A stretch of 64,000 bases of DNA from a candidate division FCPU426 bacterium (GTDB lineage Bacteria; Oederibacteriota; Muellerivitia; Muellerivitales; Muellerivitaceae). Below are positions 26,560 through 44,657 of the stretch, in pieces (the first letter of the stretch is position 1; every line of letters begins with the position of its first letter). The translations under genes were made by a program, and so were the position numbers. The DNA is taken from assembly GCA_963796105.1 (NCBI GenBank), contig CAWCKJ010000004.1:1-64000 (forward strand). The letters are read 5' to 3'. A model generated the notes under the pieces. That model saw only the letters and a list, made by a program, of their open reading frames with translations, had not been told where the DNA came from and ran no database searches.

Positions 26560-26670
26560 TGTCTTTTGTCCCCGCCGGTTGAAAAGTGTGACGGTGGGCG
26601 GTCCAAAAGTGTGACACCCCCCGCCTTCCACGAGCCTTACGGTTCATGGTCGTTGGTTTGTCTTTAGTCT

Positions 26671-27447
26671 TTACCCTTCCTTCTTGTCTTTGTGCCTTAG
26701 CCGTTTTTTCGATTCTGTTAATCTATAACTTTGGCCGTTGGCCTCCAGAATATGCACCCGATGGGTCAAACGGTCAATAAGAGCCCCCGTCATCCTCTCA
26801 GAACCCATGATTTCCACCCAGTTTTCGAAGGGCAGGTTGGTCGTTACCAGCAGGCTGGTCCGCTCGTAGGCCTTGCTGACAACCTCGAAGAGCAACTCGG
26901 CCCCCGCCTTGGTGAAAGGCACGTAACCCAGTTCATCCAGGACGATCAGATGGAGCCTGGCTAGCTGACGGTGGAACTTGGCCAATTGTTTCTCCTCCCG
27001 GCGCTCCAGAAGCTCCGTCACTAGGCCGGTGACGGAGAAGAACTTTACCGCTCGGCCCTGGCAACAGGCCTGGAAGGCTAGGGCCGAGGCCAGATGGGTT
27101 TTACCCGTTCCGGAGTTGCCGATCAGCAGGATGTTTTCTTTTTTGTCCATGTACTCGCCCCGCATGAGTTCCCGGATTAATTCCTGGTTGATCGAGGGCT
27201 GGGCCTTGAAATCAAATGTGTCCAAAGTCTTGAGCACGGGAAAACCGGCATCCCGGATGCGCCTCTCCTTGGCCCGGCGCTCCCGATCCAGAAGCTCTAA
27301 CTCGGCCAGCTTGAGAAGGTACTGGGGATAGTCGCTGCGCTCAGTGCGGCAGAGCTGGGCCATCTTGTCGTACTCGCGCTGCATCGTGGGCAGTTTGAGT
27401 TTTTTGAGATGATGTTCCAGTAAGAGGGTCTTTTTTGATTCGCTCAT
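26671..27447 (-). CDS. istB: IstB ATPase
   Basis: GNSGTGKT, LDELGY, TTNLPF, DRLTH. Confidence 0.95.
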   Translation of the reverse strand: MSESKKTLLLEHHLKKLKLPTMQREYDKMAQLCRTERSDYPQYLLKLAELELLDRERRAKERRIRDAGFPVLKTLDTFDFKAQPSINQELIRELMRGEYMDKKENILLIGNSGTGKTHLASALAFQACCQGRAVKFFSVTGLVTELLERREEKQLAKFHRQLARLHLIVLDELGYVPFTKAGAELLFEVVSKAYERTSLLVTTNLPFENWVEIMGSERMTGALIDRLTHRVHILEANGQSYRLTESKKRLRHKDKKEG

Positions 27448-28943
27448 GCTTCACCTCCCACGGGCATCAGTTCGCGGTAGGCCGAAAGATCCGTCCGGGC
27501 CACCTGAACATGACGCAAGTGCTCACGACCGGCAAGGCTGAAGGTGGTTAGCCTGAAATCTTCCCTGGAGTAGAGAAGTTGAGCGACAGCGTCTCGGGTA
27601 TAGATCTCCATCCCCACGGCCTTCTTCACTGCCCGGTGGAGCCTGCCCATGGAATGTTTTTCCAAAAGCCTCATCGTCTTGATGAATTCCCGTGTTCCCT
27701 CGCCGTGGAGCTTTTCCTTGGATTTCATACGGCGGTGCAGAAGGGTGAAACTTTCCGGAAGATTCCAGTCTTCCAGGGGTCTGGCATGATCAAATGCTCC
27801 CGGTTTTCCCTCCAAGATCGCCAAATAATGCACTGGATTGAAGGATATGCCTTCCTTGCACCAAAGGCGATCATGCTTCGCAATACGTTTGTCCCTGTAG
27901 AAAACATCCACCCGGTCGATGTATCCCTTCACCACTACAGGATGGTGTGCCCACTCCGAAGGCACAGAATAGTCGTTGGTGTCGAAACGCACCAGGGACG
28001 AGGACGTTGCCGTTGTGGACTGCTTCAGACAGGCGTCAAAAGATGTGGCCGGCAAAGGCCGGAATTTGGCCTTATCCTCGTCAAGAAGCTGTTTTTTGGG
28101 GAGGAACTTGCCGCGCAATTTTCGTTCGAGATCCTCGCGGCATTTCACTTTCAATTGTTCGTTTAGTTCTTCTAGGGTTCCCACTTGCGGCACTGGCACC
28201 ATGAAATTTAGCCGGACATATTTCACCCCGCCTTCCACGACACCTTTTTCATTTCCACGGCGTATCGTGCAAAAGTGGTGATCAAAGAGATAGTGGCTTT
28301 CCAACTGCTGAAAACTCCGTGCCAACACCCGTTTATGCACCCCGATAATTTTCGTCACGAGGGTTTTGGCGTTGTCGTAACTGATCCGCCAGGGCACTCC
28401 ACCAAAGTATTCAAAAGCCCGGATGTGGCCTTCCCACACAAACTCCGTACTCTCTCGCTCAAACATCTGTACGAAAAAGGCATCCGAATAGGGCAAGGCC
28501 ATTACAAAAAACGGACGTTTGACCAACACACCGTTGAGCTTCACCAAGGCGTGCCCAAAATCCACCTGCGCCTCGCCGGGTCGGTGGATCAAAGGTACGA
28601 ACACCTCGCTATTTCTCTTTTTAATCCCCCGGACCGCTCTTTTTACCTGGGTATAACAGCCGGTGTATCCATCTTCGGCTTTCAGGCGTTCAAAAATGCG
28701 CTTAGCGCTGTGGCGCTGTTTTTTGTGGACGTGCTTGTCGTCCTCCAGGATTTGCTTGATCCGACCCAGGAAAGGCCCTACCTTCGGTTGGGGCCTCTCT
28801 TGACTCATTTGGTAACCTGGAGGCTCACTATTGGCGAGTATTTTCTTGAGGGTTTCCCAGTGAATGCCTTCTTCTGCCATCACCTGGCGCTTGGGAACGC
28901 CCTCCACCAGGATTTTCTTGCGGATTTTCGTCCATTTGTCCAT
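27444..28943 (-). CDS. istA: IstA transposase
   Basis: QVDFG, FGGVP..YDN, EKGVVE, YSVP. Confidence 0.93.
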   Translation of the reverse strand: MDKWTKIRKKILVEGVPKRQVMAEEGIHWETLKKILANSEPPGYQMSQERPQPKVGPFLGRIKQILEDDKHVHKKQRHSAKRIFERLKAEDGYTGCYTQVKRAVRGIKKRNSEVFVPLIHRPGEAQVDFGHALVKLNGVLVKRPFFVMALPYSDAFFVQMFERESTEFVWEGHIRAFEYFGGVPWRISYDNAKTLVTKIIGVHKRVLARSFQQLESHYLFDHHFCTIRRGNEKGVVEGGVKYVRLNFMVPVPQVGTLEELNEQLKVKCREDLERKLRGKFLPKKQLLDEDKAKFRPLPATSFDACLKQSTTATSSSLVRFDTNDYSVPSEWAHHPVVVKGYIDRVDVFYRDKRIAKHDRLWCKEGISFNPVHYLAILEGKPGAFDHARPLEDWNLPESFTLLHRRMKSKEKLHGEGTREFIKTMRLLEKHSMGRLHRAVKKAVGMEIYTRDAVAQLLYSREDFRLTTFSLAGREHLRHVQVARTDLSAYRELMPVGGEA

Positions 28944-29079
28944 GTCTTTGTACACTCCTTTTCCTTCCGGTTTCTGTAGTTCCATTTTCTGGAACCACAT
29001 CATCCCGGAAAATCGGGGAGCGTCACACTTTTCGACCGCCTTTTTTGCCCTCTAGACCGTCACACTTTTGGAACGGCGT

Positions 29080-29548: not shown

Positions 29549-29576
29549 TGTCTACGATGGGTCCCCGGCGTGAACG
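29549..29576. repeat. 28-bp palindromic site A
   Basis: TGTCTACGATG-GGTCCC-CGGCGTGAACG. Confidence 0.7.
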
Positions 29577-29616: not shown

Positions 29617-30273
29617 TCAAAATTGAGGGCGGAGGGCTGCCTTGGCCGCCTTCAATAATTCATCCGGATCAACCCGAACTTTGATGTCCGGGTTGTAATA
29701 TACGAAATGAATGATACCCTTTTGATCTGCCACATAAGCCGCCGGAACCGGCAGTTGATGGAGAGTATTGCCGGTGGCCGAATCCAGATCCACGCCGAAT
29801 TGTTTCATCTTGGAAAGAATTTCGGGACTCACCCGGTAAGCCAGTCCAAATTTCCCTGTCATTTCCATCGAGCTGTCCGAGAGCAGGGTATAGTTGAGGT
29901 GGTGTTTATCGAGGCTTTCTTTGAGCTTTTCGGGCTTATCAGGGCTGATGGCCAGAACCTGATAACCTAATTCCACGAGTTTTGGTTCGATTTTGACCAG
30001 CTGCCCCATCTGCAGGTTGCAATAGGGGCACCAGCCCCCCCGGTAAAAAATAAGAACTGTTGGTTTTTGGGTGATAAGCTTTTTAAATTCCACCTTCTTG
30101 CCAATGAGCGTTGTAAGCATGCCGTCCGGCACGGAATCCCCCATTTTAAGGGGGTGTACATCTTCAGCTTTGTCCGCCACGGAATGGTTCGTTGATCCTG
30201 CCATGAGATTCCCCCTTGAGAAAAACATAAAAAGGCAAAGCGCGCTAATAAATAAAACCGATTCTCCTTTCAT
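29617..30273 (-). CDS. Peroxiredoxin-like (AhpC/TSA) protein
   Basis: FYRGGWCPYCN, LAISPD, LPVPAAYV. Confidence 0.88.
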   Translation of the reverse strand: MKGESVLFISALCLFMFFSRGNLMAGSTNHSVADKAEDVHPLKMGDSVPDGMLTTLIGKKVEFKKLITQKPTVLIFYRGGWCPYCNLQMGQLVKIEPKLVELGYQVLAISPDKPEKLKESLDKHHLNYTLLSDSSMEMTGKFGLAYRVSPEILSKMKQFGVDLDSATGNTLHQLPVPAAYVADQKGIIHFVYYNPDIKVRVDPDELLKAAKAALRPQF

Positions 30274-30328
30274 TCCGATACCTTTCCCTATTCCTTTAGT
30301 TATTTTTTTTAAACCTGGAAGCGCGGCC

Positions 30329-32059
30329 TCATCCAAAGGTGAAGGCATAAACGGCGGTGCCCTTGTCGTCGAATTTGACGCGAAGACGGTGGGAACCAGG
30401 CTTTCCTTTCAAATCCACCAGGTAATACAGCCTTTGGGTATCCAGGAGCACCTTCCCGTCCCGCACATCCCCCCCGGCCCCGTCGTCAATTGCCTTTCCA
30501 TCCAGGGTCAGGGAAACCTGGCCGCCCTTTTGACCGGGCCCAATCACGAGATAAACCTTATCCGCCGTAAATTGGATTTCCAAAGCCGAGCCCTTTTTCG
30601 GTTTCGCGGCCTCGCCCGTGAGCGTCCAAATGCCCTCATAGGCGATATGGTGCAAGGGCAGGGACGCGGGAAGCGAATATTTTCTCTTGCCTAAAATCGG
30701 GCGTTCCTTGGAGGCGAACCGCTCCAGCCGGTCCAAGCCCAGGTAGGATTCGGGTGTTTGGTCGTAATCGGATTCCTGGGCCTCCATGGCGGATGCCGCG
30801 GACGCGGCGGGATGCCCGGCCTCGGCGAGAAGCTCACCTATGGCGGCGTCCATCTCGTCGTAATGACCTTCCCCGAAATGTTCCAGGCGGATATGCCCCT
30901 TGGCGTCGATAAGGTACTCGGCGGGCCAGCTGTCGTTGTGGAAAGCGTTCCAAGTTTGATAGCCGTTGTCCTGGGCCACGGGATAAAGGATGCTGAACTG
31001 CGCCAGGGCTTTTTGGACGTTGCTGGTTTCCTTTTCAAACGCGAACTCAGGCGTATGGACGCCCACCAGGACGAAATGGTCGGGACCGTATTTTTGGTAC
31101 CAGGCTTTCGCATAGGGCAGGGTCCTCAGGCAGTTGATACAGCTGTAGGTCCAAAAATCCACGAGGACGACCTTGCCCCGGAGTTTTTCCAGGGTGAGGG
31201 GCCCGCCGTTCAGCCAGGCGGAGATGCCAGTGAATTCCGGGGCCGGGCCCAGGTCCGCGAGCTTTCCTTGCGAGGCATCCACGGCTTTGGTGGGCGCCCT
31301 GCCCCTGAGGGCGTCCAACTGGCCGCTAACGAGCTTGTTGTTTTCCACGCCGTTGATGAGGTTGCCGTAGCTGGGGAAAGCCTCCAGTACCTTGAGTTGG
31401 ATCGTCTTGTCGTAATTGGTGTAAATCAAAACCGCCACGCAAATCATGACCAGGCCGAAAACCTGCTGGATGCGGCCCGTGAACTTCGTCACCCGGCGCA
31501 TCCTGCCGAACAGCCAGGAGCCGCCGAGGGAGACCAGGAACAGGGGGATCCCCAGGCCCAGAACGTAGGCCAGGGTCACGAGAAGCACTTGGAGGTTGAC
31601 CGCCTGGGTGGCGGCCAGGGTGGCGATTGTGGCCAGGATCGGGCCCGCGCAAGGCGCCCAGACCAAGCCGATTGAGAAACCCGCCACGTAACCCGCGCCG
31701 AAACCCGTTCCTTCCCCTTTTCCCTGGAAGCGGCTTTGAAGCGGCTGGAGGACGCGGCTGATCCAGGCCTCGAATTTCGCGCCAAGGGAGGGAAACAAAA
31801 GGAAGATGCCCAAGAGCGAGATGATCCCGACTGCCACAAGGCGGAACACATTGGGGCTGATATGAAGGAAGCTCTCCAGGTAGGAGATGAACAAGGTAAA
31901 GAGAGTGAAGCTGGTCATCACCCCCAGCGTCAGGCCGAAGGGTTTGCGCTTGCCCCCCGTGGAGGAGACGGATAGAACCAGCGGCAAGAGGGGCCAGATG
32001 CAAGGGGCCAGGATGGTGGCGAAACCCGCCAGGAAACTGAAGAAAAGAAGAAAAATCAT
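30329..32059 (-). CDS. dipZ: DipZ (CcdA/DsbD TM domain + thioredoxin-like + C-terminal domain)
   Basis: APCIWP, WAPCAGP, FWTYSCINC, HTPEF, AFTFG. Confidence 0.9.
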   Translation of the reverse strand: MIFLLFFSFLAGFATILAPCIWPLLPLVLSVSSTGGKRKPFGLTLGVMTSFTLFTLFISYLESFLHISPNVFRLVAVGIISLLGIFLLFPSLGAKFEAWISRVLQPLQSRFQGKGEGTGFGAGYVAGFSIGLVWAPCAGPILATIATLAATQAVNLQVLLVTLAYVLGLGIPLFLVSLGGSWLFGRMRRVTKFTGRIQQVFGLVMICVAVLIYTNYDKTIQLKVLEAFPSYGNLINGVENNKLVSGQLDALRGRAPTKAVDASQGKLADLGPAPEFTGISAWLNGGPLTLEKLRGKVVLVDFWTYSCINCLRTLPYAKAWYQKYGPDHFVLVGVHTPEFAFEKETSNVQKALAQFSILYPVAQDNGYQTWNAFHNDSWPAEYLIDAKGHIRLEHFGEGHYDEMDAAIGELLAEAGHPAASAASAMEAQESDYDQTPESYLGLDRLERFASKERPILGKRKYSLPASLPLHHIAYEGIWTLTGEAAKPKKGSALEIQFTADKVYLVIGPGQKGGQVSLTLDGKAIDDGAGGDVRDGKVLLDTQRLYYLVDLKGKPGSHRLRVKFDDKGTAVYAFTFG

Positions 32060-32919: not shown

Positions 32920-33751
32920 TTGAGCCTGAACTCAAATAGTTGGGGGAATAAGCCGGAAAAAATCCTTCATTGCACCTTCTTATGCCTCGCTTTGTCCGTG
33001 GTTTCTTGCCGGGTCCAAATCACCTACCCGCACGCCCCTGGAACCCTTTTTATCCGCCAGCAAATCTGCGACCTCAATGATTTCAAGTCGGGCTTCTTCA
33101 AGCGGGAAAACGACCTTAGGGGACATGGCTTCATGGCCTACAGTTTCCACCGGGACCCAATTGACCCCAAGACCTATATCCTGTCCTTTAAATGCGGGGA
33201 CTTGGAAAAGGCAGTAGAATTCATCCGTTCCTCCAATTTCTATTTCTCCTGCGTGGGTGCCGGTTTGGGCCAGCCGCTGTTCTGGGCCGGAACGGACGTG
33301 GTGGGCCTTCCTTACCCGAAACTCACCCCCTTGGCGGGCGGTATCGCCTTGGCCCGCTACGAGGTACGGGATTACGATACCTGGAAACGAGGGTGGGATG
33401 TCGAATACGGCGGTAATAGGGGCCGCCCCAAAACAGAGGGTGGACCCCAAACCCTCAGCCTGCACCGGCTTGAGGGCAGGCCCGAGGCCGTGATCGTGGT
33501 TTACGAAGTGACAGATATCCCCCAAGCGCGGGCCTTTTTGGACTCCGAAGCCGAAAAAAACGCCAATAGATACCCACGGGCAAGCCCGTGGTACTAAAAT
33601 CAAAATTCAAGCTTCGCTTGCCGTGCTTTCAGCACGGTGGCCTTTCACCCACGGGCAAGCCCGTGGAACTCAAAGCGCCGGATTAGAAACCACTGGGGTC
33701 ACCCGCCAGGCCCTCTGGTTTGGAACAAATTTGGAAGAAGGAATTTTTTAA
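32920..33751 (+). pseudogene. Putative lipoprotein with two internally similar domains, interrupted by a small palindromic insertion
   Basis: Lipobox-like VVSC. Removing about 33565-33682 restores EKNA-LETTGVTRQALWFGTNLEEGIF*, which mirrors the first domain's LFWAGTD. Confidence 0.6.
33565..33682. mobile_element. ~118-bp IS200/IS605-type non-autonomous element
   Basis: Two copies of the CCCACGGGCAAGCCCGTGG hairpin near the ends plus an internal hairpin; no ORF. Confidence 0.65.
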
Positions 33752-33831: not shown

Positions 33832-33859
33832 TGTCCACGTCGGGTCCCCGTAAGGAACA
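33832..33859. repeat. 28-bp palindromic site B
   Basis: TGTCCACGTCG-GGTCCC-CGTAAGGAACA. Confidence 0.8.
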
Positions 33860-33891: not shown

Positions 33892-34695
33892 TTAAGGGCG
33901 CGTGATACGCTTTAATTCAAAGACGGCTTTGGCGGGCCGGGTGTAGTAGTTCCCGTCCCCATTCGTGTCCCAAGTCGTTTCGATGCTGTCCTCTTCCATT
34001 TCCAGGGAATTGCCATCGCCCGTCAGGGTGTAGGAGAAGGTATGAGCAAAGGTTTGGTTCCCCATCCTCTGGATGACTTCGGGGGGCAAAAGATTAGAAA
34101 CCGAAGTCATGGGGTAGTAATCGGTATGGGCGATTTTATTGCCATCGCCCGTAAAGGTAAAAGTGGTGGGGGGCATTTGGGCCCATTGCACTCGATAGCC
34201 GCCTTCCGCACGGGTAACCGTCATTTTCTGGTTCAGCAGGCCCATAGCATCAGGCGGCGGGGATTGAATACAGAGCCACTCGCCCGCAACGCTTTTGGCG
34301 GCCTCCGCAGCCACGCTTTTTTGGAGCATGTTCATTTCCCAATTGAAGGACTGGATGCTATGGATAATAGAATCTCTTTGGGCTTGAAGGTTTTGTTTTT
34401 GAACTTCGGTTTGTTGGTCTTCGGTTTCGGTGTTAAATGAGATGATTTGAGAATTGAATTGTTTAATTTTTTCCAACAGCGCAGACCTTTCCTGATTGAA
34501 CCTGGCGCTTTCATCCGCCGGTATCCCCTTCGGGGGCGGCTGGAGATCCGGAAGGCCCCCCCCGGGGCTATTCCCCCCCGCTTTATCCGTGGCCGCCTGC
34601 GCCATGCCGCTATTTTGGGCAAAGCCAAAGGAAGCGAATCCCCCCCAAACCACCAACAAAAAAACAAAACTCAAAAGATAAAATGAACGCGCCAT
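33892..34695 (-). CDS. Secreted hypothetical protein (cassette C-B)
   Basis: Signal peptide, coiled coil, beta-barrel-like C-terminus; GGAG RBS. Confidence 0.7.
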   Translation of the reverse strand: MARSFYLLSFVFLLVVWGGFASFGFAQNSGMAQAATDKAGGNSPGGGLPDLQPPPKGIPADESARFNQERSALLEKIKQFNSQIISFNTETEDQQTEVQKQNLQAQRDSIIHSIQSFNWEMNMLQKSVAAEAAKSVAGEWLCIQSPPPDAMGLLNQKMTVTRAEGGYRVQWAQMPPTTFTFTGDGNKIAHTDYYPMTSVSNLLPPEVIQRMGNQTFAHTFSYTLTGDGNSLEMEEDSIETTWDTNGDGNYYTRPAKAVFELKRITRP

Positions 34696-34935
34696 AAACG
34701 CTCCAACAAAAGAATCTTTGAATTTAAAACAGATTACCCGTTTTTCCCATGAACCCCATGGATTCAGGGCCAAACCCCATTCCAACCCGTTCAACCGGTA
34801 GAACTAAAGTCGGCACGATCAGATTCACCGTTAAGATAAATATCAGTTAATTGTCCTCAAAATTTTTAAATTAGTCTCTGACATGAATCATAAATTGAAT
34901 TCTGTGGTTAAATGCCGTTTATAGCCTAAAATAAT

Positions 34936-35675
34936 CGTCCACGAGTAGAGTAAAGCACTGGCGCGCCTCCGGTTGCCCGGAACGTTTCCAGCGCCTTCTC
35001 GTCAAACCGTACGTGCGGTTTTCCCGCATACGGCTTTCCCTGAACGTTCGCCGAAAGCTCTTCGCCTGTTCCTTTCGGTTCAGGCTTACTCTTTCCCGCT
35101 AGTCTTGAAGCTGGTTCCAGGGCTTGGTCCTTCAGGAGTTCCTAGGCTTTCGCCAATCTCCCGCCCGTCCCCTTTATAAGACGCTGTTCAGGCCAAGCCC
35201 CTTCGCTCCCCCAAGGTTTTGCTGTCCTTGGAATCCACGCTAGTATGGGCTTGTCCGACCCCCATAGGATCTCCCTGTCATTTCGCCGCTTAGACTTATA
35301 GGCAGGTACCTGGTACTTCCCTATGGGTCTCCCAAGTTCCGTTGTTCTCCGTCTGGACGTGTCGCCCCTGTTACCCCGGAGGAGTCTCATGCGTATTTCT
35401 GGCTCCCGCATGGGATACTGGTTTCCCCAAGACCCGAAAGGGTCACCCTCCTCAATCTCGACGTTACGAGGTTACACCTAGGTTCACACGTGTTACGACC
35501 CGTCCTTTCGCATCGGGCGCTTTACCGCCCTTTGTCGAGCCGCTTGAACCTGGCAGGTTACCCCGCCCGATTCGGCTCCCTGCTACCAGACTGCCAAATT
35601 TTGTCTGGGTCGGCACTTTTCAGCCGACTGGATGAACAACAGCTTTCTTGGCGCGCCGGGTCCCCGTCGAGGACA
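34936..35675. repeat. 28-bp site C, split by intron copy 1 (34936-34944 and 35657-35675)
   Basis: Rejoined: CGTCCACGA|CG-GGTCCC-CGTCGAGGACA. Confidence 0.85.
34945..35656 (-). ncRNA. ORF-less group II intron, copy 1 (712 nt)
   Basis: 5' GCGCG (variant of GUGYG), domain V AAGCCGTATGCGGGAAAACCGCACGTACGGTT, domain VI, 3' end CTCTAC; no RT ORF. Confidence 0.92.
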
Positions 35676-35739
35676 ACTTTATTCGACCTGCTCAAACCAA
35701 ATCAACTTTGAGTGATATGGTTCCAAGCTCTGAAGGGGC

Positions 35740-36171
35740 TTAGCCGGGAGGGATCGGATCTTTCCCGGCCAGGTAAATGACGCAAGTTTCGTAGTCTTGG
35801 ATGGGCTGGATTTGCACGGTCATGTTGTAAACTTCCCCGCCCACCTTGAGTTTCATCTTTCCGCTCTGCGGCTCCGTTGTTTTCGTGAGATCCATGAAGG
35901 CCATTTTCTTGAACCTGGAGATCAGGTGGCGGTAGCGGAACCAGGGCAACTCGGTGGTCCCGGGAACGAATTCCCCTTGGACCCGCCAGCGCAGCCGCAT
36001 CTTGGATTCGGCCCAGGGTTCCACCACGGGCCGGATTTGGATTTCGCTCGCCCCGGCCAGGATGGCTTCATGAAGAAGGGCAAAACTAAGCTCCCCCATC
36101 GAAGGAAAGGGCTTCTCATTCTCTTCGGGGCTTTCTCCTTCCTGGCTGGCATCCCCATGAGGGTCGTTCAT
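35740..36171 (-). CDS. Stand-alone GspE/PilB N-terminal (N2D)-like domain protein
   Basis: GASEIQIRP, RWRVQG, ISRFKKMAFMDL..PQSG; no Walker motifs. Confidence 0.7.
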   Translation of the reverse strand: MNDPHGDASQEGESPEENEKPFPSMGELSFALLHEAILAGASEIQIRPVVEPWAESKMRLRWRVQGEFVPGTTELPWFRYRHLISRFKKMAFMDLTKTTEPQSGKMKLKVGGEVYNMTVQIQPIQDYETCVIYLAGKDPIPPG

Positions 36172-36214
36172 GGCCGCTTATTTCTCCTCATTTTCCGGGT
36201 AATTCAAGGCTGCC

Positions 36215-36445
36215 CTATCCCGCGAACTGGCTCCGGTAAACAGCCTTGATGTGCGCCAATCTCTCTTCAAGCTGTTGGGTTTTCTCGGCCAGCCCCAACT
36301 CACGCGCCAGGCCGATGGCATCTCTCAAATAATCCTTGCAATCGCTGTATTCGGTCATCGGGTGGCTGGAATCGTACATTTGGTCATAGGCTTCCTCGGC
36401 CTTTTTCTCCAAAAACTCCAATTGCTCTTGCGGGGTCGGTGGCAT
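36215..36445 (-). CDS. Small helical hypothetical protein
   Basis: 76 aa; AEEAYDQMYD...HIKAVYRSQF. Confidence 0.65.
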   Translation of the reverse strand: MPPTPQEQLEFLEKKAEEAYDQMYDSSHPMTEYSDCKDYLRDAIGLARELGLAEKTQQLEERLAHIKAVYRSQFAG

Positions 36446-36538
36446 GCCTAAAATCCTGGTTTTTATTCTTCCGTGAATGAAAGCGGGGTTCATCCATTCC
36501 GGTTGGGCTTATCATAGTGTAATAAACCTCGTTTTCAC

Positions 36539-36566
36539 TGTCCAATGCGGGTCCCCGTCGTGGACA
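36539..36566. repeat. 28-bp palindromic site D
   Basis: TGTCCAATGCG-GGTCCC-CGTCGTGGACA. Confidence 0.9.
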
Positions 36567-36576
36567 AGGACATCTC

Positions 36577-36960
36577 TTAAAAGAACTGTGGAGACCCTAA
36601 TAATCCTAATACGACATGTAGGATCAGGTAAGTCATTATGAACAGCACGGCGAACTTATACTTTTTCTGTCGTATGAACCGGAATAGAAAATGGAGTAAA
36701 AAACTGTAATACAAAAAAAATAAAACCCAAATAATTTCGGCTAAAATAAATGCCACATAAGAGTTAAAGCCTCCCTCGCTATATACAAAGTTGCTTATCC
36801 AGCGAGACAGCAACATGAAAGGTCCGAGTATAAAAATACCGATCCAGTGAAGAAATCCCTGTATTCTCAGCTGATCAATGAAATAGGCAATAGCACCTAA
36901 TGAAAAAGCGACGAGAAAATTAAAATACTTAAATTCTTTAAGCGTTTTTAAGATCTTCAA
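36577..36960 (-). CDS. Four-TM membrane protein (AT-rich)
   Basis: GGAGG RBS before TTG; hydrophobic. Confidence 0.7.
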   Translation of the reverse strand: MKILKTLKEFKYFNFLVAFSLGAIAYFIDQLRIQGFLHWIGIFILGPFMLLSRWISNFVYSEGGFNSYVAFILAEIIWVLFFLYYSFLLHFLFRFIRQKKYKFAVLFIMTYLILHVVLGLLGSPQFF

Positions 36961-36997
36961 ATTGCCTCCCTATCGCGGACAACTTCTGGCAGAACGG

Positions 36998-38494
36998 TCA
37001 ATTGCCTGGTTTCTGTAAATCTTCCTGCAATTCCTTCGCTTTCCGGGCGGCATATTCATTTCCTTGGTTGGCCGCCAGTTGAAACCAGTAGAGAGCTTGC
37101 TTGGTAACATCATTGACTTCGGACTCATAGTAGAGACTACCGGCCATTGCCACGCTTTCAATCTCATATAGATCCCCTAATTTAACCTTGGCTTCGACGC
37201 TTCCCAAATTCGCGGCTTGGGTATACCACTCGATGGCTTTTTTCTCATCATTGCCCTTTTGAGGATCGTTGTAGTAATCCCCATTTTGAATGTCCTGTTC
37301 CACGGCGGTGGAAGGCGATGTGTTGGTTCCATTGGAGGTATCCCCGCTGGAATTTTCCCCCGAGGACGCCGTTACATTGGCCAAATCCGACAATTTGTTC
37401 GTTGCCATTTGGTCACCGTTCGCCGAGGCCAATTGGTACCAATATTTCGCCTTTCCGAGGTCCTTACCGACCCCTTTCCCATCTGCATAACATAGGCCCA
37501 TCATCAATTGGGCAAAACTGTTCTTCGGGTCCTGATCGGCCGCTTTTTGGAACCAAGGAATAGCCTCGGAAAACCTATTTTTTCCGTAAAAATGGTAACC
37601 CAACTGTGCTTCGTGATAAGCATCCCCCGCTTTACGCACCAAACTGACAGCCTTCGCCTCATCCGGGTTCACACCCCATCCATTCAGATAAAACATTCCC
37701 AAATTCCCGGTCGCCATCACATGCCCCTGGTCGGCGGCTTTTTGAAGCCACTTCACGGCCTCCACGTTGTCCTCCTTGGCCCCCTTGCCATCGGAATAAG
37801 CCAAGCCAAGTGAGTTCTCTCCGTCCGCATTGCCTAGGTCCGCCGATCGGTTGAAATATTGAAAAGCCTCATCATCCTTGCCCGCCTTTTGGGCTTCCGT
37901 GCCCTTTTGGAAAAAGGCTGCGCCATCCTCCACTGTCGTTGGACTACTGCTAGTTGGGGGAGCATTCGAAGTGGGCTCGGACGCGGGCTGGTTTGAACCG
38001 TTCGCGGAACTTTCGGGAGGAAAGGGGGTTGTGCCTGAATTGATCTTTGCCAAAGCCTCATCGGCCTTTTTATATCCTTGGGCCGATGCTTTTTGAAGCC
38101 AATCCTGGCCTTCTTTCTTACCCGAAGCGATCTCGGCGTCCCATTTTTCAATTTGCTTTTGATCTTTTTGCGTCCATTCCCAAGCCGTCATGGCCATTGC
38201 CGCGTCATAAAGGTAAAGCCCATAGCGATACTGGCCCTCGGCGTTCCCCTTTTCCGCGGCAACGCTATACCATTTACCCTCGTCTTCATATTTTTTGATC
38301 TTGTTCGCGGCCTTTGCCCTCTTGAGGGCCACCTTCGCCGAAACGGAGTGATCGATCTTAACTCGGGAGGGCGTCACGGTCGCCGTGGGAAGTTCGCTGT
38401 CCGCAGGCACATACACATTCTGGGCCAACACGGAGCCTCCAAAGGCCGCAATACCAAGGATGGCCCCTAAAAATATTCCAGTTCTTATTTTCAT
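36998..38494 (-). CDS. Secreted Sel1-repeat protein
   Basis: Multiple SLR repeats (AVKWLQKAADQG, AKYWYQLASANG); signal peptide. Confidence 0.9.
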   Translation of the reverse strand: MKIRTGIFLGAILGIAAFGGSVLAQNVYVPADSELPTATVTPSRVKIDHSVSAKVALKRAKAANKIKKYEDEGKWYSVAAEKGNAEGQYRYGLYLYDAAMAMTAWEWTQKDQKQIEKWDAEIASGKKEGQDWLQKASAQGYKKADEALAKINSGTTPFPPESSANGSNQPASEPTSNAPPTSSSPTTVEDGAAFFQKGTEAQKAGKDDEAFQYFNRSADLGNADGENSLGLAYSDGKGAKEDNVEAVKWLQKAADQGHVMATGNLGMFYLNGWGVNPDEAKAVSLVRKAGDAYHEAQLGYHFYGKNRFSEAIPWFQKAADQDPKNSFAQLMMGLCYADGKGVGKDLGKAKYWYQLASANGDQMATNKLSDLANVTASSGENSSGDTSNGTNTSPSTAVEQDIQNGDYYNDPQKGNDEKKAIEWYTQAANLGSVEAKVKLGDLYEIESVAMAGSLYYESEVNDVTKQALYWFQLAANQGNEYAARKAKELQEDLQKPGN

Positions 38495-38565
38495 ATTTCC
38501 CTCCCTGGTTTTATTTTAATCTCGAGATCACTAGTTCAACCGAATATTTAGAGGCCGAAGTTTTT

Positions 38566-38593
38566 TGTCCACCAGGGGTCCCCGTCGTGGACA
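38566..38593. repeat. 28-bp palindromic site E
   Basis: TGTCCACCAGG-GGTCCC-CGTCGTGGACA. Confidence 0.9.
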
Positions 38594-38601
38594 AGGTTGA
38601 G

Positions 38602-38829
38602 CTATTGTCTCTTCCGATACCCAACACCGCTTTTGGGTTTCCCTGTGAGAGCATAACGGAACAAATAAATTCCTACACCAATTGAAACAGCGGCTGCAAA
38701 ATAACCATAAATAAGTAAAGAATGTTCTATTTCGCAATAAATGCTATATACAGCAAATGCAAAACACACCAAACTCATTCCAAAAGCTTCCCACTTGTTA
38801 AATTTATAAGAAAATTCTAATTTTTTCAT
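38602..38829 (-). CDS. Small two-TM membrane protein (cassette F-E)
   Basis: GGAGAGG RBS; 75 aa; fills nearly the whole space between sites F and E. Confidence 0.7.
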   Translation of the reverse strand: MKKLEFSYKFNKWEAFGMSLVCFAFAVYSIYCEIEHSLLIYGYFAAAVSIGVGIYLFRYALTGKPKSGVGYRKRQ

Positions 38830-38843
38830 ACCTCTCCAAAGGC

Positions 38844-39583
38844 TGTCCACGAGTAGAGTAAAGCACTGGCGCGCCTCCGGTTGCCCGGAACGTTTCCAGC
38901 GCCTTCTCGTCAAACCGTACGTGCGGTTTTCCCGCATACGGCTTTCCCTGAACGTTCGCCGAAAGCTCTTCGCCTGTTCCTTTCGGTTCAGGCTTACTCT
39001 TTCCCGCTAGTCTTGAAGCTGGTTCCAGGGCTTGGTCCTTCAGGAGTTCCTAGGCTTTCGCCAATCTCCCGCCCGTCCCCTTTATAAGACGCTGTTCAGG
39101 CCAAGCCCCTTCGCTCCCCCAAGGTTTTGCTGTCCTTGGAATCCACGCTAGTATGGGCTTGTCCGACCCCCATAGGATCTCCCTGTCATTTCGCCGCTTA
39201 GACTTATAGGCAGGTACCTGGTACTTCCCTATGGGTCTCCCAAGTTCCGTTGTTCTCCGTCTGGACGTGTCGCCCCTGTTACCCCGGAGGAGTCTCATGC
39301 GTATTTCTGGCTCCCGCATGGGATACTGGTTTCCCCAAGACCCGAAAGGGTCACCCTCCTCAATCTCGACGTTACGAGGTTACACCTAGGTTCACACGTG
39401 TTACGACCCGTCCTTTCGCATCGGGCGCTTTACCGCCCTTTGTCGAGCCGCTTGAACCTGGCAGGTTACCCCGCCCGATTCGGCTCCCTGCTACCAGACT
39501 GCCAAATTTTGTCTGGGTCGGCACTTTTCAGCCGACTGGATGAACAACAGCTTTCTTGGCGCGCCGGGTCCCCATCGTGGACA
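38844..39583. repeat. 28-bp site F, split by intron copy 2 (38844-38852 and 39565-39583)
   Basis: Rejoined: TGTCCACGA|CG-GGTCCC-CATCGTGGACA. Confidence 0.88.
38853..39564 (-). ncRNA. ORF-less group II intron, copy 2 (712 nt)
   Basis: Same length as copy 1 and apparently identical. Confidence 0.92.
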
Positions 39584-39813: not shown

Positions 39814-40245
39814 TTAAACTTCACCCCCTTCCTCGATGTAAACGTCCTCGCAAACTTCGGATTCACAAGCCAGGCTGTCCATGTTGTGAATTTCTCCCGC
39901 TTCCTCCTCCGTCCGAGCTTTGTAGACTTTCCTTCCCTTGAGGGTCCAATAGACCGTGAAATTTCTTAACCCCTGGGCCTTCTTAACCGGGCGGTGTTTT
40001 ATTTCCCTCAAGGCAGAAATAACCCGGTGAAGTTCTTCCTGCGCCGTTTCCAGGGCCTTAATTACGTTGGCCGTAATATCCCTGGGGTTTTTCCCGTCTG
40101 CCGTTTCCCGGATTTCCTCGACTATGAAAGCGGCCAAGCCGTCCCCGGTGTCTTTCTCCCCCTTTCTAATACGGTCTATAAGCCCGTCCGGATAGGCGGC
40201 GTTAGCCGCCTTTAAAAGTTTGTTGGTGTGTCTGTTGTTAAGCAT
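39814..40245 (-). CDS. Hypothetical protein downstream of ardC
   Basis: GGAGG RBS; start overlaps the ardC stop. Confidence 0.7.
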   Translation of the reverse strand: MLNNRHTNKLLKAANAAYPDGLIDRIRKGEKDTGDGLAAFIVEEIRETADGKNPRDITANVIKALETAQEELHRVISALREIKHRPVKKAQGLRNFTVYWTLKGRKVYKARTEEEAGEIHNMDSLACESEVCEDVYIEEGGEV

Positions 40246-40639
40246 TAAGCAACCTCCTTGTTTTGTTCTGCATCTACGGGTTTCAGAAGAAAATCGACGG
40301 CCTTTTGGGCCTGGGAAACGGCGGTCATTAGGGCCTTTGAATCGTCTTTGATTGCTTCGATCCAATTGGCGATATAAGAGGCGTGGTTGGTCTTGTAGGG
40401 GATGCCGACATGGGCGCAAAGGATTGCGGCCCCAAACTCGGCCACAAGCTCCTCGGCGGCATATTCCGGGGAACCGAAAAGGGAGCCTTTAACCCGGTCG
40501 AGCCTGGCCTTTCCTCCGGTCCAGTGGGTGTTATGCCGATATCGGCATAAGACGCAAAATGCCGAATCCCGGATTATGCCGAATGGACCGACGTTTCCCT
40601 TGAATTGATAACCCCGGCCCATTCGATGATTCGGCATAA

Positions 40640-41638
40640 TCAAAGCGCCTCCAAGAACGCGAGTAACTTGTCGTCAGGACGATACCGCCCCGGTTTACAG
40701 GCGATGGCGGCTACACTAGACAAGGCTTTTTCTTTGAGTCGGAGATCCGCATGCATGTAGACCTGAGTGGTTTCAACGGATTCATGCCCAAGCCAGAGAG
40801 CGATTACCGATTGGTCAACCCCGTGTTGCAACAGTTCCATGGCTGTGCTGTGCCGCAGGACGTGAGGACTGACCCGCTTGCCGACAAGCGAGCTACAGTA
40901 CGCTGACGCTGATAGCGTGTGTTTTTGGACGATGTACTCAAATGCGTCACGACTCATCCGCTCTCCACGTATAGTCGGGAAAAGAGGACTGTTTTCAGCG
41001 CCTTGATGTTCTTTCAACCATGCTTCGAGTAGCTTTGCGGTTTCCTTTCGAAGTGGGGTGCACCGTTGTTTACGCCCTTTGCCTTCACACCGAATGTGAG
41101 CACCCTCGCCAAGCACGACATCTTGGGGACGAAGATTGATCAATTCGGATGAGCGAAGCCCCGTTTGTAATACAACCAGCAGGATCAACAGGTCACGACG
41201 GCCAACCCAGGTTTTCCGATCAGGTGCTTTGAGAAGCGCTTCAATCTCCGGCCGATCCAGAAAATCCACGGTTCGCCGGACATATCTTTTGCTCGGCATG
41301 GCCAGGATTTTTTGACAATGGAGCATATAGGCCGGCTCGCTCATTGCCACATAACGGAAGAAGGAGCGAATAGCTGTCAAACGAACATTCCTGCTACGCG
41401 CCGTATTCTTCCGGGCCGTTTCGACGTGATGGAGAAAATCACCCACCAGCCCCACATCCAAGTCTTCAATCCGAAGTTTCGTTGGGTCCTTGCCACGCTT
41501 TTCACTGGCGAAGCGCAGGAACAAGCGGAAGGTGTCGCGGTATCCGGCAATCGTATTTGGGCTCGCCTCCATCTGGTTGCGCAGACGGTCGGTAAAAAAG
41601 TGTTGGAGCATTGCCGGGAAGGTTGATGGGTTCATCAT
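40640..41638 (-). CDS. Tyrosine recombinase RitC-like
   Basis: GLRSSE, KGRK, HVLRHS, LGH, Y. Confidence 0.92.
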   Translation of the reverse strand: MMNPSTFPAMLQHFFTDRLRNQMEASPNTIAGYRDTFRLFLRFASEKRGKDPTKLRIEDLDVGLVGDFLHHVETARKNTARSRNVRLTAIRSFFRYVAMSEPAYMLHCQKILAMPSKRYVRRTVDFLDRPEIEALLKAPDRKTWVGRRDLLILLVVLQTGLRSSELINLRPQDVVLGEGAHIRCEGKGRKQRCTPLRKETAKLLEAWLKEHQGAENSPLFPTIRGERMSRDAFEYIVQKHTLSASAYCSSLVGKRVSPHVLRHSTAMELLQHGVDQSVIALWLGHESVETTQVYMHADLRLKEKALSSVAAIACKPGRYRPDDKLLAFLEAL

Positions 41639-42579
41639 CGCACCTCCACAGCCGAGTTACCGGTTACCCGCCGGGAGGCAAGTTCCAGCAATTCGGGAAC
41701 GGCCTCGATATACCAGTAGGTGTGCTCCGGACCGGAGTGACCCAGATATGTCGTCAGTTTGATCATTTCCCGGGTGACATCCTTGCCCGTGCGATACCAA
41801 CCCACCATCGTGCGTGCGGCGAAGGTGTGCCGGAGATCGTGGAGGCGCGGGCCTCGTCCATGTTTGCAGAACCGTTGGGGAGTCCGTAACCCAATTCGCT
41901 GGCAAACAACCGCGAAGTTGTAGCGCGCGCTGCAATCGTCCGGACGGTTTCCTTCCTCCGTGGCAAAGAAGGATTGCGGAACGAAGCCCACAAGCTGGTC
42001 GCGTTGGATAACGTAGGCCTTCAGGTGTTTGGAAACGTCCTTGGTGATGGGTACCGAGCGCGTTTTCCCACCCTTAGCACGCTGGATGGTCAAGACACCG
42101 CTGTCCAAATCAACATCATCGTTGTCCAGTCCAAGCGCTTCACTAACCCTGAGACCAGTTATTGCGATCAACCCAAAGAGGGTTGAAAAGGTCAACGCCC
42201 GTATGCCGCTCATGGAGGGCAGGCTGGACGCGGTTTCGACAATCCTTTTGATCTCTTCGTCGCTGTAGATGTGGGGCTTTGGACGGCGAAATCGATATGG
42301 AATAAGCCCCTTTGGTGGTACTTCATGCGCTGGATCAAGGCCATGAAGCCATTGCGCAAAAAGCCGGATCATTGTTAGGCGGGCGGCCCAAGTCGGACGG
42401 TGGGCCTTGCCAAAATCCTTTTGCCACTTCAGGAACAACTCGGTGGATATATGGTTAGCGCCTTGTTGTTCGGCGAAGGCAATAAACCTGCGAAGCACCC
42501 TGGCTGTCGTAGTGAGGTCAAAGCCCAGGCCGCGACGGATCATCAAATAACGGTCGAGTTCTTGGGATAGGTTGCTCAT
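41635..42579 (-). CDS. Tyrosine recombinase RitB-like
   Basis: GLRVSE, HDLRHT, LGH, YWY. Confidence 0.92.
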   Translation of the reverse strand: MSNLSQELDRYLMIRRGLGFDLTTTARVLRRFIAFAEQQGANHISTELFLKWQKDFGKAHRPTWAARLTMIRLFAQWLHGLDPAHEVPPKGLIPYRFRRPKPHIYSDEEIKRIVETASSLPSMSGIRALTFSTLFGLIAITGLRVSEALGLDNDDVDLDSGVLTIQRAKGGKTRSVPITKDVSKHLKAYVIQRDQLVGFVPQSFFATEEGNRPDDCSARYNFAVVCQRIGLRTPQRFCKHGRGPRLHDLRHTFAARTMVGWYRTGKDVTREMIKLTTYLGHSGPEHTYWYIEAVPELLELASRRVTGNSAVEVR

Positions 42580-43826
42580 TTCGCACCTACCTCAACCGGC
42601 CATGGCTGGGCGACCGAGCGCAAACCTTCAATATCGACCTTGGCGTAGATCATCGTTGTTTGCCTGGATCGGTGGCGGAGCACATCGCCCACTTCGGGAA
42701 GTGATGATCCATGCTTCATCAGTTTCATGGCCAGGCTATGCCTCAAAATGTTGGCGCCTACATATCGGACAGGAGGCCTCAAGCCGGTCTTGATAAAGGC
42801 TTCTTTCAAGACCGAGTTGAGGATTTCCGCACCTTGGAAAGGTAGTCGCGGGGCGCGCTCAGTGACGAACAATACCCTGGATGTCGTCTTGCGGTCGCGT
42901 CGGATATAGTCGGCAAGGACTTCACCAACGTCCTGAGGAAGAGGCATCCGGTCATGCAACTGTCCCTTGCCCCGAATGAGAATTTCGCCCTTGCGCCAGT
43001 CGATATCGTCGATTTGAACCGTGATGACCTCGGTGGGCCGCAGTCCAAGCCTGGCCATAAGAAGTATCATGGCGTAATTGCGTCGTCCGACAGGCGTATC
43101 TTTCCTGACGGCAGCAATGAGAGTTTCCACCTGTTCAGACGTTAGATGTCGTGGAAGGGATTGTTGGTGGGGTTGGGCGATCCGGGGGACACTGGGCGCC
43201 AGATTGGTTGCCGTTTTACCGCTTTTGAAAAGAAACAGCAGAAAATTCCTCAGATGTGTTGCCTGTGTCTTGTCCCGGAAAAGCTTTCGACGCGATAGCT
43301 GGAATTGAATGTACTTGATGATACCTTCTGGCGTAATTCCAGAAAGGTTATCCTTCCCGTCGGAGAAAAGGAATTTGAGAAATTGATTGGCGACATACCA
43401 GCAACGAAGGATTGATTTCTCGGTGAGCCCTCGCTGACGGCGGAGATACTCCTCGTAATCCATCCTCAAACGAAGGCGTGGAGCATCAGGGATCTTCGGG
43501 GCCAAGACAGGTTTTACCAAACCTAACCCCGCCAGGAATTTCATGAAATTCCTGGCCATGAAGTCGGCCTTTTTTTTCCAGGGTTCTGATGAATCAGAAC
43601 CCTGGAGAAGCTTTATGGCCTCATCCTCGTCAAGATTTTTTAGTTTGACTCCGGCTTCCTTCACGGCCCGATCAAGAACGGCGATACAAACTACGTATTG
43701 ATAAATTCTCGCCTGGCTGTATCCCTGGTTTTCCAGAAAGTTCTGGAACCGTCCCAGGTGCTTGCTAAACGGGCCATTGACCGTTTTGACCTTGGTACAA
43801 ACCCGCCCTGCTATAGATGATTTCAT
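42576..43826 (-). CDS. Tyrosine recombinase RitA-like
   Basis: GLRPTE, ILRHS, LRH, IYAK. Confidence 0.9.
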   Translation of the reverse strand: MKSSIAGRVCTKVKTVNGPFSKHLGRFQNFLENQGYSQARIYQYVVCIAVLDRAVKEAGVKLKNLDEDEAIKLLQGSDSSEPWKKKADFMARNFMKFLAGLGLVKPVLAPKIPDAPRLRLRMDYEEYLRRQRGLTEKSILRCWYVANQFLKFLFSDGKDNLSGITPEGIIKYIQFQLSRRKLFRDKTQATHLRNFLLFLFKSGKTATNLAPSVPRIAQPHQQSLPRHLTSEQVETLIAAVRKDTPVGRRNYAMILLMARLGLRPTEVITVQIDDIDWRKGEILIRGKGQLHDRMPLPQDVGEVLADYIRRDRKTTSRVLFVTERAPRLPFQGAEILNSVLKEAFIKTGLRPPVRYVGANILRHSLAMKLMKHGSSLPEVGDVLRHRSRQTTMIYAKVDIEGLRSVAQPWPVEVGAK

Positions 43827-44657
43827 CTCGTTGCTCCTTTTGACTGAATTTCCGACTAAGGAGCAAAAATAGCACAGACAAATCCGCCATCTGGTGTAAG
43901 TCAACCTAACTTCGATGGCCATTTCTACACCTCAAGCAGAGACCAATTCGCGGGTTTTATGCCGAATGAAATTTTCATTTTCTGATGAAAAACGGGCTGA
44001 CTGGAATCGGTTCGGCATAATCCGGGATTCGGCATTTTGCGTCAACTCGTGGAAAAGAGTTCCGTAATAGCCTTCCGTTGTTTTGAAAGCTTCCTTGAAG
44101 GGGAGGGTGATTCGGTCGGTCGCCGGGCTGTAAAAAGCTTTGTCCTTAACCTGGTCGAAAAGTATGGCGGCTCCCGAGTTCTTTATGATTTGGTCGGCTT
44201 CATCGACGTTCTTAACCTGGTTCCCGGTGAATTTCTCCTTCAAGTGGTCAAGTCCCTCGATCTGGTCAAGGTTGAAAACGTAGTGAAGGCGGATAAAGGG
44301 AAATGTTTTGGATAATTTTTTTCCCTGCTCGTCCCTTTCCTCCGTTGTCTTGCTCTTGATCTCAAAATAAATAATCTCGGTTCCCTTTTCCCCTTTCTTT
44401 ACGGTCCCGCCTAATGTCTTGGCTTGAAGAAAAGTCATCCATGCGGGGGAAGAGTAGTTTTCCTGTTGGCGCTTGTATCCCAAAAGAATCAAGTTCATCC
44501 CCTGGTAAATGTGGGAGGAAGAACCATTGACGGAAGGAACGAAAAACCAAGGCTTGTCCCATGGCATGACGCCCTTTTCCATGTCGGCGGTAATTTTTTC
44601 GGCTACTTCTTCGACTAAGTTTGAAAGCTTTTCTTTTGTTTCCATTGGTTTCCCCTT

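Follow-up and report, generated by a model that had tools for sequence, protein, structure and literature searches.

Introns within the cassette array

The stretch of DNA considered in the current analysis (referred to as the window) comprises 64,000 nucleotides of contig CAWCKJ010000004.1 from a candidate division FCPU426 bacterium of the family Muellerivitaceae (assembly GCA_963796105.1). It carries an array of putative gene cassettes together with copies of a 28-bp site, and two of these copies, sites C and F, are each split by a group II intron that lacks an open reading frame (ORF) and belongs to a lineage referred to as X. The introns, the split sites and the assigned intron parts are given below, where EBS and IBS denote exon-binding and intron-binding sites and RT denotes reverse transcriptase.

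34945..35656, minus strand: ORF-less group II intron (lineage X), copy in site C (Rfam and self-comparison)
38853..39564, minus strand: ORF-less group II intron (lineage X), copy in site F (letter-identical to the site-C copy)
35657..35675, minus strand: site C, bases 1-19, comprising left arm, central GA and IBS1 (sequence)
34936..34944, minus strand: site C, bases 20-28 (sequence)
39565..39583, minus strand: site F, bases 1-19 (sequence)
38844..38852, minus strand: site F, bases 20-28 (sequence)
35004..35038 (copy F 38912-38946), minus strand: domain V with AGC triad and 5-nt terminal loop (Rfam and predicted fold)
34948..35003, minus strand: domain VI, bulged A at 34951 (38859 in copy F) (predicted fold)
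35431..35436 (copy F 39339-39344), minus strand: EBS1, CGGGUC (Rfam loop position and 5'-exon covariation)
35371 (copy F 39279), minus strand: EBS3, an A, partner +1 T (covariation)
35256 (copy F 39164), minus strand: gamma nucleotide G of J2/3, partner the last intron base C (covariation)
35459..35463 (copy F 39367-39371), minus strand: candidate EBS2, CGUCG (complement of exon -13..-9)
35069..35156 (copy F 38977-39064), minus strand: decayed 5' remnant of an RT gene in domain IV, end approximate (alignment)

The two 712-nt segments have 0 differences and are the sole two copies in the 4.98-Mb assembly. Both sites are split at the same base, after base 19 of 28, as a first-pass annotation made from the letters of the window had described, and the boundaries given there are borne out. 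Identity past the intron ends extends for merely 9 and 8 nt, which is the site consensus, and the copies therefore occupy two separate sites; sites C and F differ at 3 of 28 bases and their flanks are unrelated. Each copy lies in the same orientation as the cassette genes (sense), starts with GCGCG, ends with AC, and stands between a 5' exon GACCCG and a 3' exon TCGTGG.

The class check proposed earlier has been carried out with Rfam, and both copies score over the cut-off with RF02005 (domain I model, 70.6 bits, cut-off 49) and RF00029 (domains V-VI, 47.8 bits, cut-off 40). The longest stop-to-stop frame is of 109 aa and has no RT motif, which confirms that the intron encodes no RT/maturase. 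ORF-less introns are on their own ordinary: 888 of 13,041 bacterial group II introns are reported without a protein (PMC8919778). The marks of the IIE/IIF introns, as described in PMC3753933, are an alpha' at the terminus of the DId3 stem-loop, a 5-nt loop of domain V (DV) and a length of 450-700 nt without the ORF. The alpha' in the terminal loop of DId3 and the 5-nt DV loop are both read in the window intron, whose 712 nt include the ORF remnant of about 90 nt. Judged from its ribozyme features the intron is IIE/IIF-like (class F in the wide sense). It is similar to the IIE/IIF introns Cl.be.I2, Ge.ur.I1 and Pe.th.I2 (PMC3753933) in these two marks, in its compact ribozyme, in exon recognition led by EBS1 and in an RT without endonuclease domain, and is unlike these references in being ORF-less, in the GCGCG start and in its multicopy cassette-site target. 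The catalytic motifs are all intact (Rfam, fold). The 5' end does not read GUGYG, and the non-canonical start noted in the first-pass annotation is also present in the RT-coding copies of a related genome, G002, the off-site relatives having GAGCG; compared across these sequences, the non-GUGYG start is a trait of the lineage and not a sign of decay.

Guide pairings

Relatives of lineage X were searched in 60 related genomes, G000 being the window's own genome. They have been identified in three genomes: G002, with two copies at 93% over the initial 468 nt; G030, where the intron is ORF-less (81%); and G048 (73%). Seven introns were examined, and in all six of those in which the subdomain was found EBS1 pairs 6/6 with its own 5' exon in the same register. 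The position of the hexamer in the d3 loop is fixed, and the hexamer pairs with the last six bases of the 5' exon. The pair reads CGGGTC/GACCCG in the window intron and TGGGTC/GACCCA in G002, a one-base compensatory change. The off-site introns of G030 and G048, inserted away from any copy of the site, have wholly different hexamers, each matching its own 5' exon. EBS3 also covaries: in G000 and G002 an A faces +1 T, in G030 and G048 a T faces +1 A. Gamma does so as well, a G accompanying a terminal C in G000, G030 and G048 and an A accompanying a terminal T in G002. These compensatory changes therefore fix both intron ends and the assignment of EBS1.

The proposal that CGGGTC serves as EBS1 for GACCCG is thus upheld by the Rfam loop position and covariation, on which the assignment is based; an unconstrained full fold puts CGGGTC outside any loop, so that the loop described earlier is present in the Rfam alignment and not in that fold. 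The proposed EBS2/IBS2 pairing is kept as a candidate. The 5-nt complement is present in the on-site copies only, with, by eye, no counterpart in G030 and a weak one in G048, and covariation in the off-site relatives is lacking. EBS2 is described as not needed for splicing of IIE/IIF introns (PMC3753933).

At window positions 35431-35444 the EBS1 of the on-site lineage-X introns is the reverse complement of an adjacent conserved GACCC. One may speculate that a template-switch mutation could have made the lineage-X guide in one step.

Occupancy of the sites

A total of 46 copies of the 28-bp site have been found in the own genome. Those of the window that hold no intron are as follows.

29549..29576, minus strand: empty site A, GACCCA (sequence)
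33832..33859, minus strand: empty site B, GACCCG with +1 A (sequence)
36539..36566, minus strand: empty site D, GACCCG with +1 C (sequence)
36954..36981, minus strand: degenerate, weaker seventh site (sequence)
38566..38593, minus strand: empty site E, hexamer GACCCC (sequence)

Both GACCCG and a +1 T are present at 7 of the 46 sites, 2 of them filled by the intron, and none of the 39 non-matching sites (0/39) is filled by a lineage-X intron. A match to EBS1 and EBS3 is thus necessary for occupancy and not sufficient: the earlier statement that occupancy follows the predicted pairing is correct for the letters of sites A to F and for the non-matching sites, and does not extend to the matching sites at large. 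Among the empty sites, the one at C5:26003 has the same letters as site F would have without its intron. All four copies with this type of EBS1 (4/4, from two genomes) lie between bases 19 and 20 of the site. The suggested specialisation of the lineage for the site is supported by these copies and by a further one from peat, and the situation that would have spoken against it, other copies lying mostly in unrelated sequence, is not found.

The peat copy was identified in a 957-nt contig of an RNA library (X3). It is ORF-less, about 96% identical to the window intron (27 differences, one gap), and has both site halves with other flanks. Pieces of this copy are present in 3 further runs of 4, two of them with the same downstream flank. 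As the flanks differ beyond the 28-bp site, the copy is another insertion and not a sign of expression or splicing. In three runs the RNA-library contigs end 11-14 nt from the intron 5' end, and one run has a further contig that spans it; these ends have not been used as evidence. Intron-free alleles of the cassettes flanking sites C and F were not found in 30 relatives, in which the flanking cassettes were not found intact either. Two homologues (69-70%) of the 143-aa cassette gene lie away from sites in the relatives.

RT-coding relatives

Genome G002 carries two 1930-nt copies of lineage X, which start with GCGCG and, in two separate arrays, split the 28-bp site after the same base as the window introns do. 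The full-length RT-encoding relative sought for the window intron is thus present in another genome at the same position. Its product is a 436-aa RT/maturase without endonuclease domain (TIGR04416, 412 bits, cut-off 300); the domains of the protein P0001 are RVT_1 and GIIM only, and its best plasmid matches are at 41-45%. The remnant in domain IV of the window intron aligns to the starts of the RT genes of G002 and G048, and its decay is the same as that of the off-site ORF-less intron of G030. The window intron is 95-99% identical to the G002 copies over nt 1-400 and 74% identical over nt 401-480. Because the first 400 nt are G002-like, the next 80 are divergent and the decay is common with G030, the ORF loss appears to be old and the targeting domain to have been exchanged by recombination.

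A search of genome contigs at the protein level retrieved two identical proteins and one distant. Metagenome contigs searched by the junction pattern gave chance matches (13/13) with no intron after them, viral contigs gave 0 matches, and plasmids gave short domain V matches only, 0/51 records covering >80% of the query.

Three lineages on one site

Group II introns home to single conserved sites, insert after terminators, or enter attC. In the current analysis we have identified two further lineages, Y and Z, on the same 28-bp site, so that lineages X, Y and Z insert after site bases 19, 11 and 28, respectively. Of 17 distinct lineage-Y junctions in the relatives, 12 follow base 11; of 22 lineage-Z junctions, 21 follow base 28, the intron there having a 5' extension of 2 nt. 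The junctions were counted by motif with some rows missed, among them 2 off-site Z copies, and the loci were partly picked for holding sites, so that the counts are not genome-wide rates. EBS1 is in the same register as in X, reading CGTCGT in Y (site bases 6-11) and TGTCCA or TGTCTA in Z (site bases 23-28). Both lineages have RT-coding and ORF-less forms. The proteins of the three lineages are 36-45% identical to one another and fall into three clades with 98-100% support, each with off-site members, in a midpoint-rooted tree of 24 rows comprising fetched proteins only and no labelled class references. The new observation here is that three separate lineages have an EBS1 matched to three parts of one site.

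Three sites of genome G025 (L110, L116 and L120) hold Y after base 11 and Z after base 28 together, and this genome has on-site as well as off-site copies of both lineages. The target of lineage X includes the central GA and has been seen in one orientation; lineage Z is also found on reversed sites, and its insertion leaves the 28-bp site whole. At five Z loci (L064, L067, L104, L120 and L126, in G025 and G026) the 2-nt extension precedes a GTGCC start, and it seems to be part of the intron because the EBS1 pairing ends at site base 28. Assignment of Y and Z to class IIC or IIC-attC was considered and rejected, both having an AGC-type DV and a 6-nt EBS1. The lineage-Y protein carries FADD, a motif described as a mark of group g2 (PMC3552965).

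The own genome also has lineage Y, in the form of a tandem ORF-less pair (G000:C7:117081-118494, L003) comprising an 862-nt copy and another that has an internal deletion. The pair starts with GCGCG directly after the left 11 bases of an array-end site at C7:118494, the right half of which is unrecognisable beyond, and is unrelated to the lineage-X introns of the window.

Some related loci are less regular. Lineage-Z relatives at L085, L098 and L106 (G025, G002) have unclear 5' ends or targets, and one of them is directly upstream of a lineage-Y site. A lineage-Y copy at L065 (G026:C3, about 168500-170000) starts with ATGCG and is unusual in that its 5' junction lies three bases deeper in the site. 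At L096 (G022:C23:65526-66596) an RT gene is directly followed by a CRISPR-like repeat array.

The 28-bp site and a short serine recombinase

A profile of 121 sites, filtered to require a central GA, describes the site as a 28-bp near-palindrome of the form 13-GA-13, with inverted arms around the central dinucleotide. Its presence was scored with an 18-nt pattern and the reversed pattern as control. Of 30 other genomes from the family 28 have the pattern, as does the single further genome from the order (1/1); among 29 more from the phylum none has it, and the control is almost nil. Array segments held in common end at sites, as exemplified by a 1276-bp segment (100%) within G002 and an 858-bp one (99.2%) that occurs in two genera. 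Sequence comparison thus indicates that the site bounds mobile gene cassettes throughout the family. A reading of the site as an 11-6-11 tyrosine-recombinase (dif-like) site was rejected, the arrays having by eye no consistent adjoining integrase, and the 13-GA-13 form was adopted. The right arm as a -35 promoter box was rejected as well: a -10 box at the right spacing is present in 10 of 154 sites vs 14.8 in shuffles. Three of six promoter-like matches in the window started at a site right arm.

A short serine recombinase of 275-278 aa, comprising resolvase and recombinase domains and no zinc ribbon, has been identified in 7 of 30 relatives, where it adjoins terminal sites of arrays. Among 16 recombinase loci (2 cut by contig ends), the site lies 9-146 nt past the stop codon in 8 of 9 short-form genes, the site of the ninth being split by a lineage-Y intron, and no long-form gene (0/5) has such an adjoining site. 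The recombinase domain of a solved large serine recombinase reads half-site positions 1-12, and its zinc domain positions 16-24, according to PMC3783163; the reach of the former fits arms of 13 bp. The 28-bp site is, on this gene arrangement, likely to be the crossover site of the short serine recombinase.

Comparison with known systems

The IIC-attC introns, represented by S.ma.I2 (PMC3001079, PMC7923331, PMC4424553), are likewise a lineage that inserts into recombination sites of cassette arrays, and the analogy drawn in the first-pass annotation holds to this extent. It does not hold for class, orientation, recognition or site type. The IIC-attC introns enter the attC bottom strand, opposite to cassette transcription, and use a 3-4 nt IBS1 with a hairpin, whereas the window intron is co-oriented with the genes and has a 6-nt covarying EBS1 and an AGC triad (PMC7923331, PMC3001079). 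Their target is the attC of a tyrosine integrase; the 13-GA-13 site has, on inspection, no attC R boxes. UHB.I2, a IIB1 intron beside attC (PMC7923331), is similar in being a non-IIC intron with a non-consensus 5' end in sense orientation within a cassette array. It is a single case just downstream of attC that lacks conserved exons, and no match of its EBS1 to the site is shown there.

The ORF-less introns of Thermosynechococcus elongatus (TeI3; PMC2882425) are comparable in having one ORF deletion, retargeting through EBS changes, a related RT acting in trans and, in some cases, homing to conserved sites in repeated elements. They are close relatives in one genome with their driver RTs present; here no RT has been found, and a single 28-bp site is the target of three distant lineages. 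The att sites of large serine recombinases (PMC3783163) share with the present site two arms, a central dinucleotide and a neighbouring gene with resolvase and recombinase domains; they differ from it in that here the arms are of 13 bp, both partners are alike, the enzyme lacks a zinc ribbon and dozens of putative sites are arranged in arrays.

Mobilisation of ORF-less introns in trans (PMC2882425, PMC4424553), specialisation of introns for a given context (PMC12584367) and the exploitation of cassette sites by IIC-attC introns are already known. In a literature search that left most subscription journals outside, no paper was found that describes cassette arrays of a serine recombinase or the convergence of introns on a single recombination site.

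Origin of the intron copies

We hold with good confidence that the copies in sites C and F are selfish ORF-less introns that retrohomed to the site through EBS1 and EBS3 with a related RT supplied in trans, the site itself being a likely serine-recombinase crossover. The most likely course, and a probable one, is that the intron RNA, together with such an RT, reverse spliced into the sense strand between bases 19 and 20; the RT would have come from a full-length relative now lost or unassembled, and the intron RNA would splice. Insertion would remove most of the right arm (bases 20-28), so that the site would stop recombining. An X or Y insertion would thereby fuse two neighbouring cassettes into one unit, moved via the next intact sites with the intron inside, and such a unit could bring the intron into genomes without an RT. 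With the intron in the orientation of the cassette genes, read-through transcripts would splice it out, and insertion would therefore cost little. A site present in dozens of copies, intergenic and moving between genomes, would be a renewable low-cost target, which would explain three retargetings. The site is therefore likely to be a shared landing pad for selfish introns and not an intron product, and convergent selfish retrohoming of three lineages into a multicopy recombination site is the best reading of the data.

Several results weigh against this reading. The own assembly (96.8% complete) contains no RT by RVT_1, motif scan, GIIM or the protein of the relative (0 candidates), and the RT of G002 need not be the driver, because the intron there is only 74% identical over nt 401-480. 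Five of the seven matching sites of the own genome are empty, and in G002, with 67 sites in 12 stretches, 2 are filled while 10 exact and 21 wobble-compatible targets are empty. In the free on-site RNA, EBS1 is predicted to pair with the intron's own GACCC (pair probability about 0.97), the predicted cost of opening this hairpin being 3.3 kcal/mol in the window intron and 8.5 in G002 vs 0-1.2 in off-site relatives. Such a hairpin may lower the activity of the intron; the modelled 6-bp exon duplex (-9.5 kcal/mol) could pay for its opening. The short serine recombinase was not found in the own genome, and the arrays there are for this reason orphans.

The missing RT, the predicted masking of EBS1 and the low occupancy of matching sites, together with the location of the copies 3.9 kb apart in one array, would also fit inert relics, which entered once inside a cassette, were then doubled or homogenised at the DNA level, and splice poorly on account of the hairpin. 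This origin is unlikely, since the identity ends at the site consensus and sites C and F themselves differ, the catalytic motifs are all intact, RT-coding copies with the same hairpin lie in two separate arrays of G002, and the peat copy is a further ORF-less one with other flanks. Selfish retrohoming is also preferred to a role of the introns as machinery for making cassettes, in which on-site and gene-adjacent copies would recombine and, through splicing and reverse transcription, yield a gene-plus-site cassette. Such a model has been proposed for IIC-attC introns, as summarised in PMC7923331 and PMC3001079; its precondition is present in the on-site and off-site Y and Z copies of G025, and the introns are co-oriented with the cassette genes. 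Lineage X, however, was found in no more than 2 of the 30 further genomes of the family, in one of them off-site, whereas 28 of the 30 have sites, the own genome has no off-site lineage-X copy, no intermediate was found, and parasitism is simpler than one dedicated pathway for three unrelated lineages with three cut points. We regard this role as improbable, and the earlier suggestion that the introns help build cassettes from RNA has found nothing in its support.

The first-pass annotation had also suggested that the intron may lock cassettes in place. Locking follows from the geometry, the insertion replacing right-arm bases 20-28 at positions which, by the half-site reach of 1-12 given for the large serine recombinase domain (PMC3783163), the enzyme would read. 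A lock kept by the host, fixing cassette order through a site that is broken in the DNA while the message is restored at the RNA level, is nevertheless very improbable: no benefit is seen, the copies are 100% identical and hence recent and not old fixtures, no occupied junction is conserved across genomes (the flanking cassettes were not found intact in 30 relatives), the own genome lacks an identifiable short recombinase, and lineage Z leaves the site whole. Locking is likely to be a side effect of insertion. More doubtful than selfish retrohoming, and put forward only as a long shot, is a serine-recombinase analogue of the integron with a guild of introns, three independent lineages that tile the 28-bp site and whose on-site and off-site copies would supply the homology and the RT for joining genes to sites; if this is true, the origin of gene cassettes becomes directly testable.

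The three distant lineages, each with a base-pairing guide to a different hexamer of one site, represent a clean natural case of convergent retargeting in which two lineages can occupy one site together. The convergence is independent support for the view that the site, as the recombination target of an integron-like system, is old and has been exchanged widely. The three lineages also provide material with which to test if introns merely profit from cassette arrays or contribute to cassette formation; for integrons, PMC3001079 leaves this undecided.

Cassette genes and neighbouring elements of the window

The cassette genes around the split sites are as follows.

38602..38829, minus strand: 75-aa cassette gene after site F (no Pfam match)
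36998..38494, minus strand: 498-aa Sel1-repeat cassette gene (Pfam)
36577..36960, minus strand: 127-aa cassette gene (no Pfam match)
35740..36493, minus strand: two cassette genes upstream of site C, 92 aa (no match) and 143 aa (T2SSE-like fragment) (Pfam)
33892..34794, minus strand: 300-aa cassette gene after site C (no Pfam match)

Upstream of the array (40245-44645) an ArdC antirestriction gene is interrupted by an element with three integrases and inverted ends of 33 nt (40640-43922). Two loci of the relatives (L072, L073) have an ArdC gene next to the short serine recombinase. Peroxiredoxin-like and DsbD/redoxin genes are present in the array of the window at 29617-32059 and again in another array of the own genome at G000:C7:121731-124225, with about 75% identity and in a different order. 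Just beyond site A a two-ORF element with 27-nt inverted ends (26597-29040) has been identified, which we take to be IS21-like, and the hairpin pair at 33572-33674 is presumably IS200-like.

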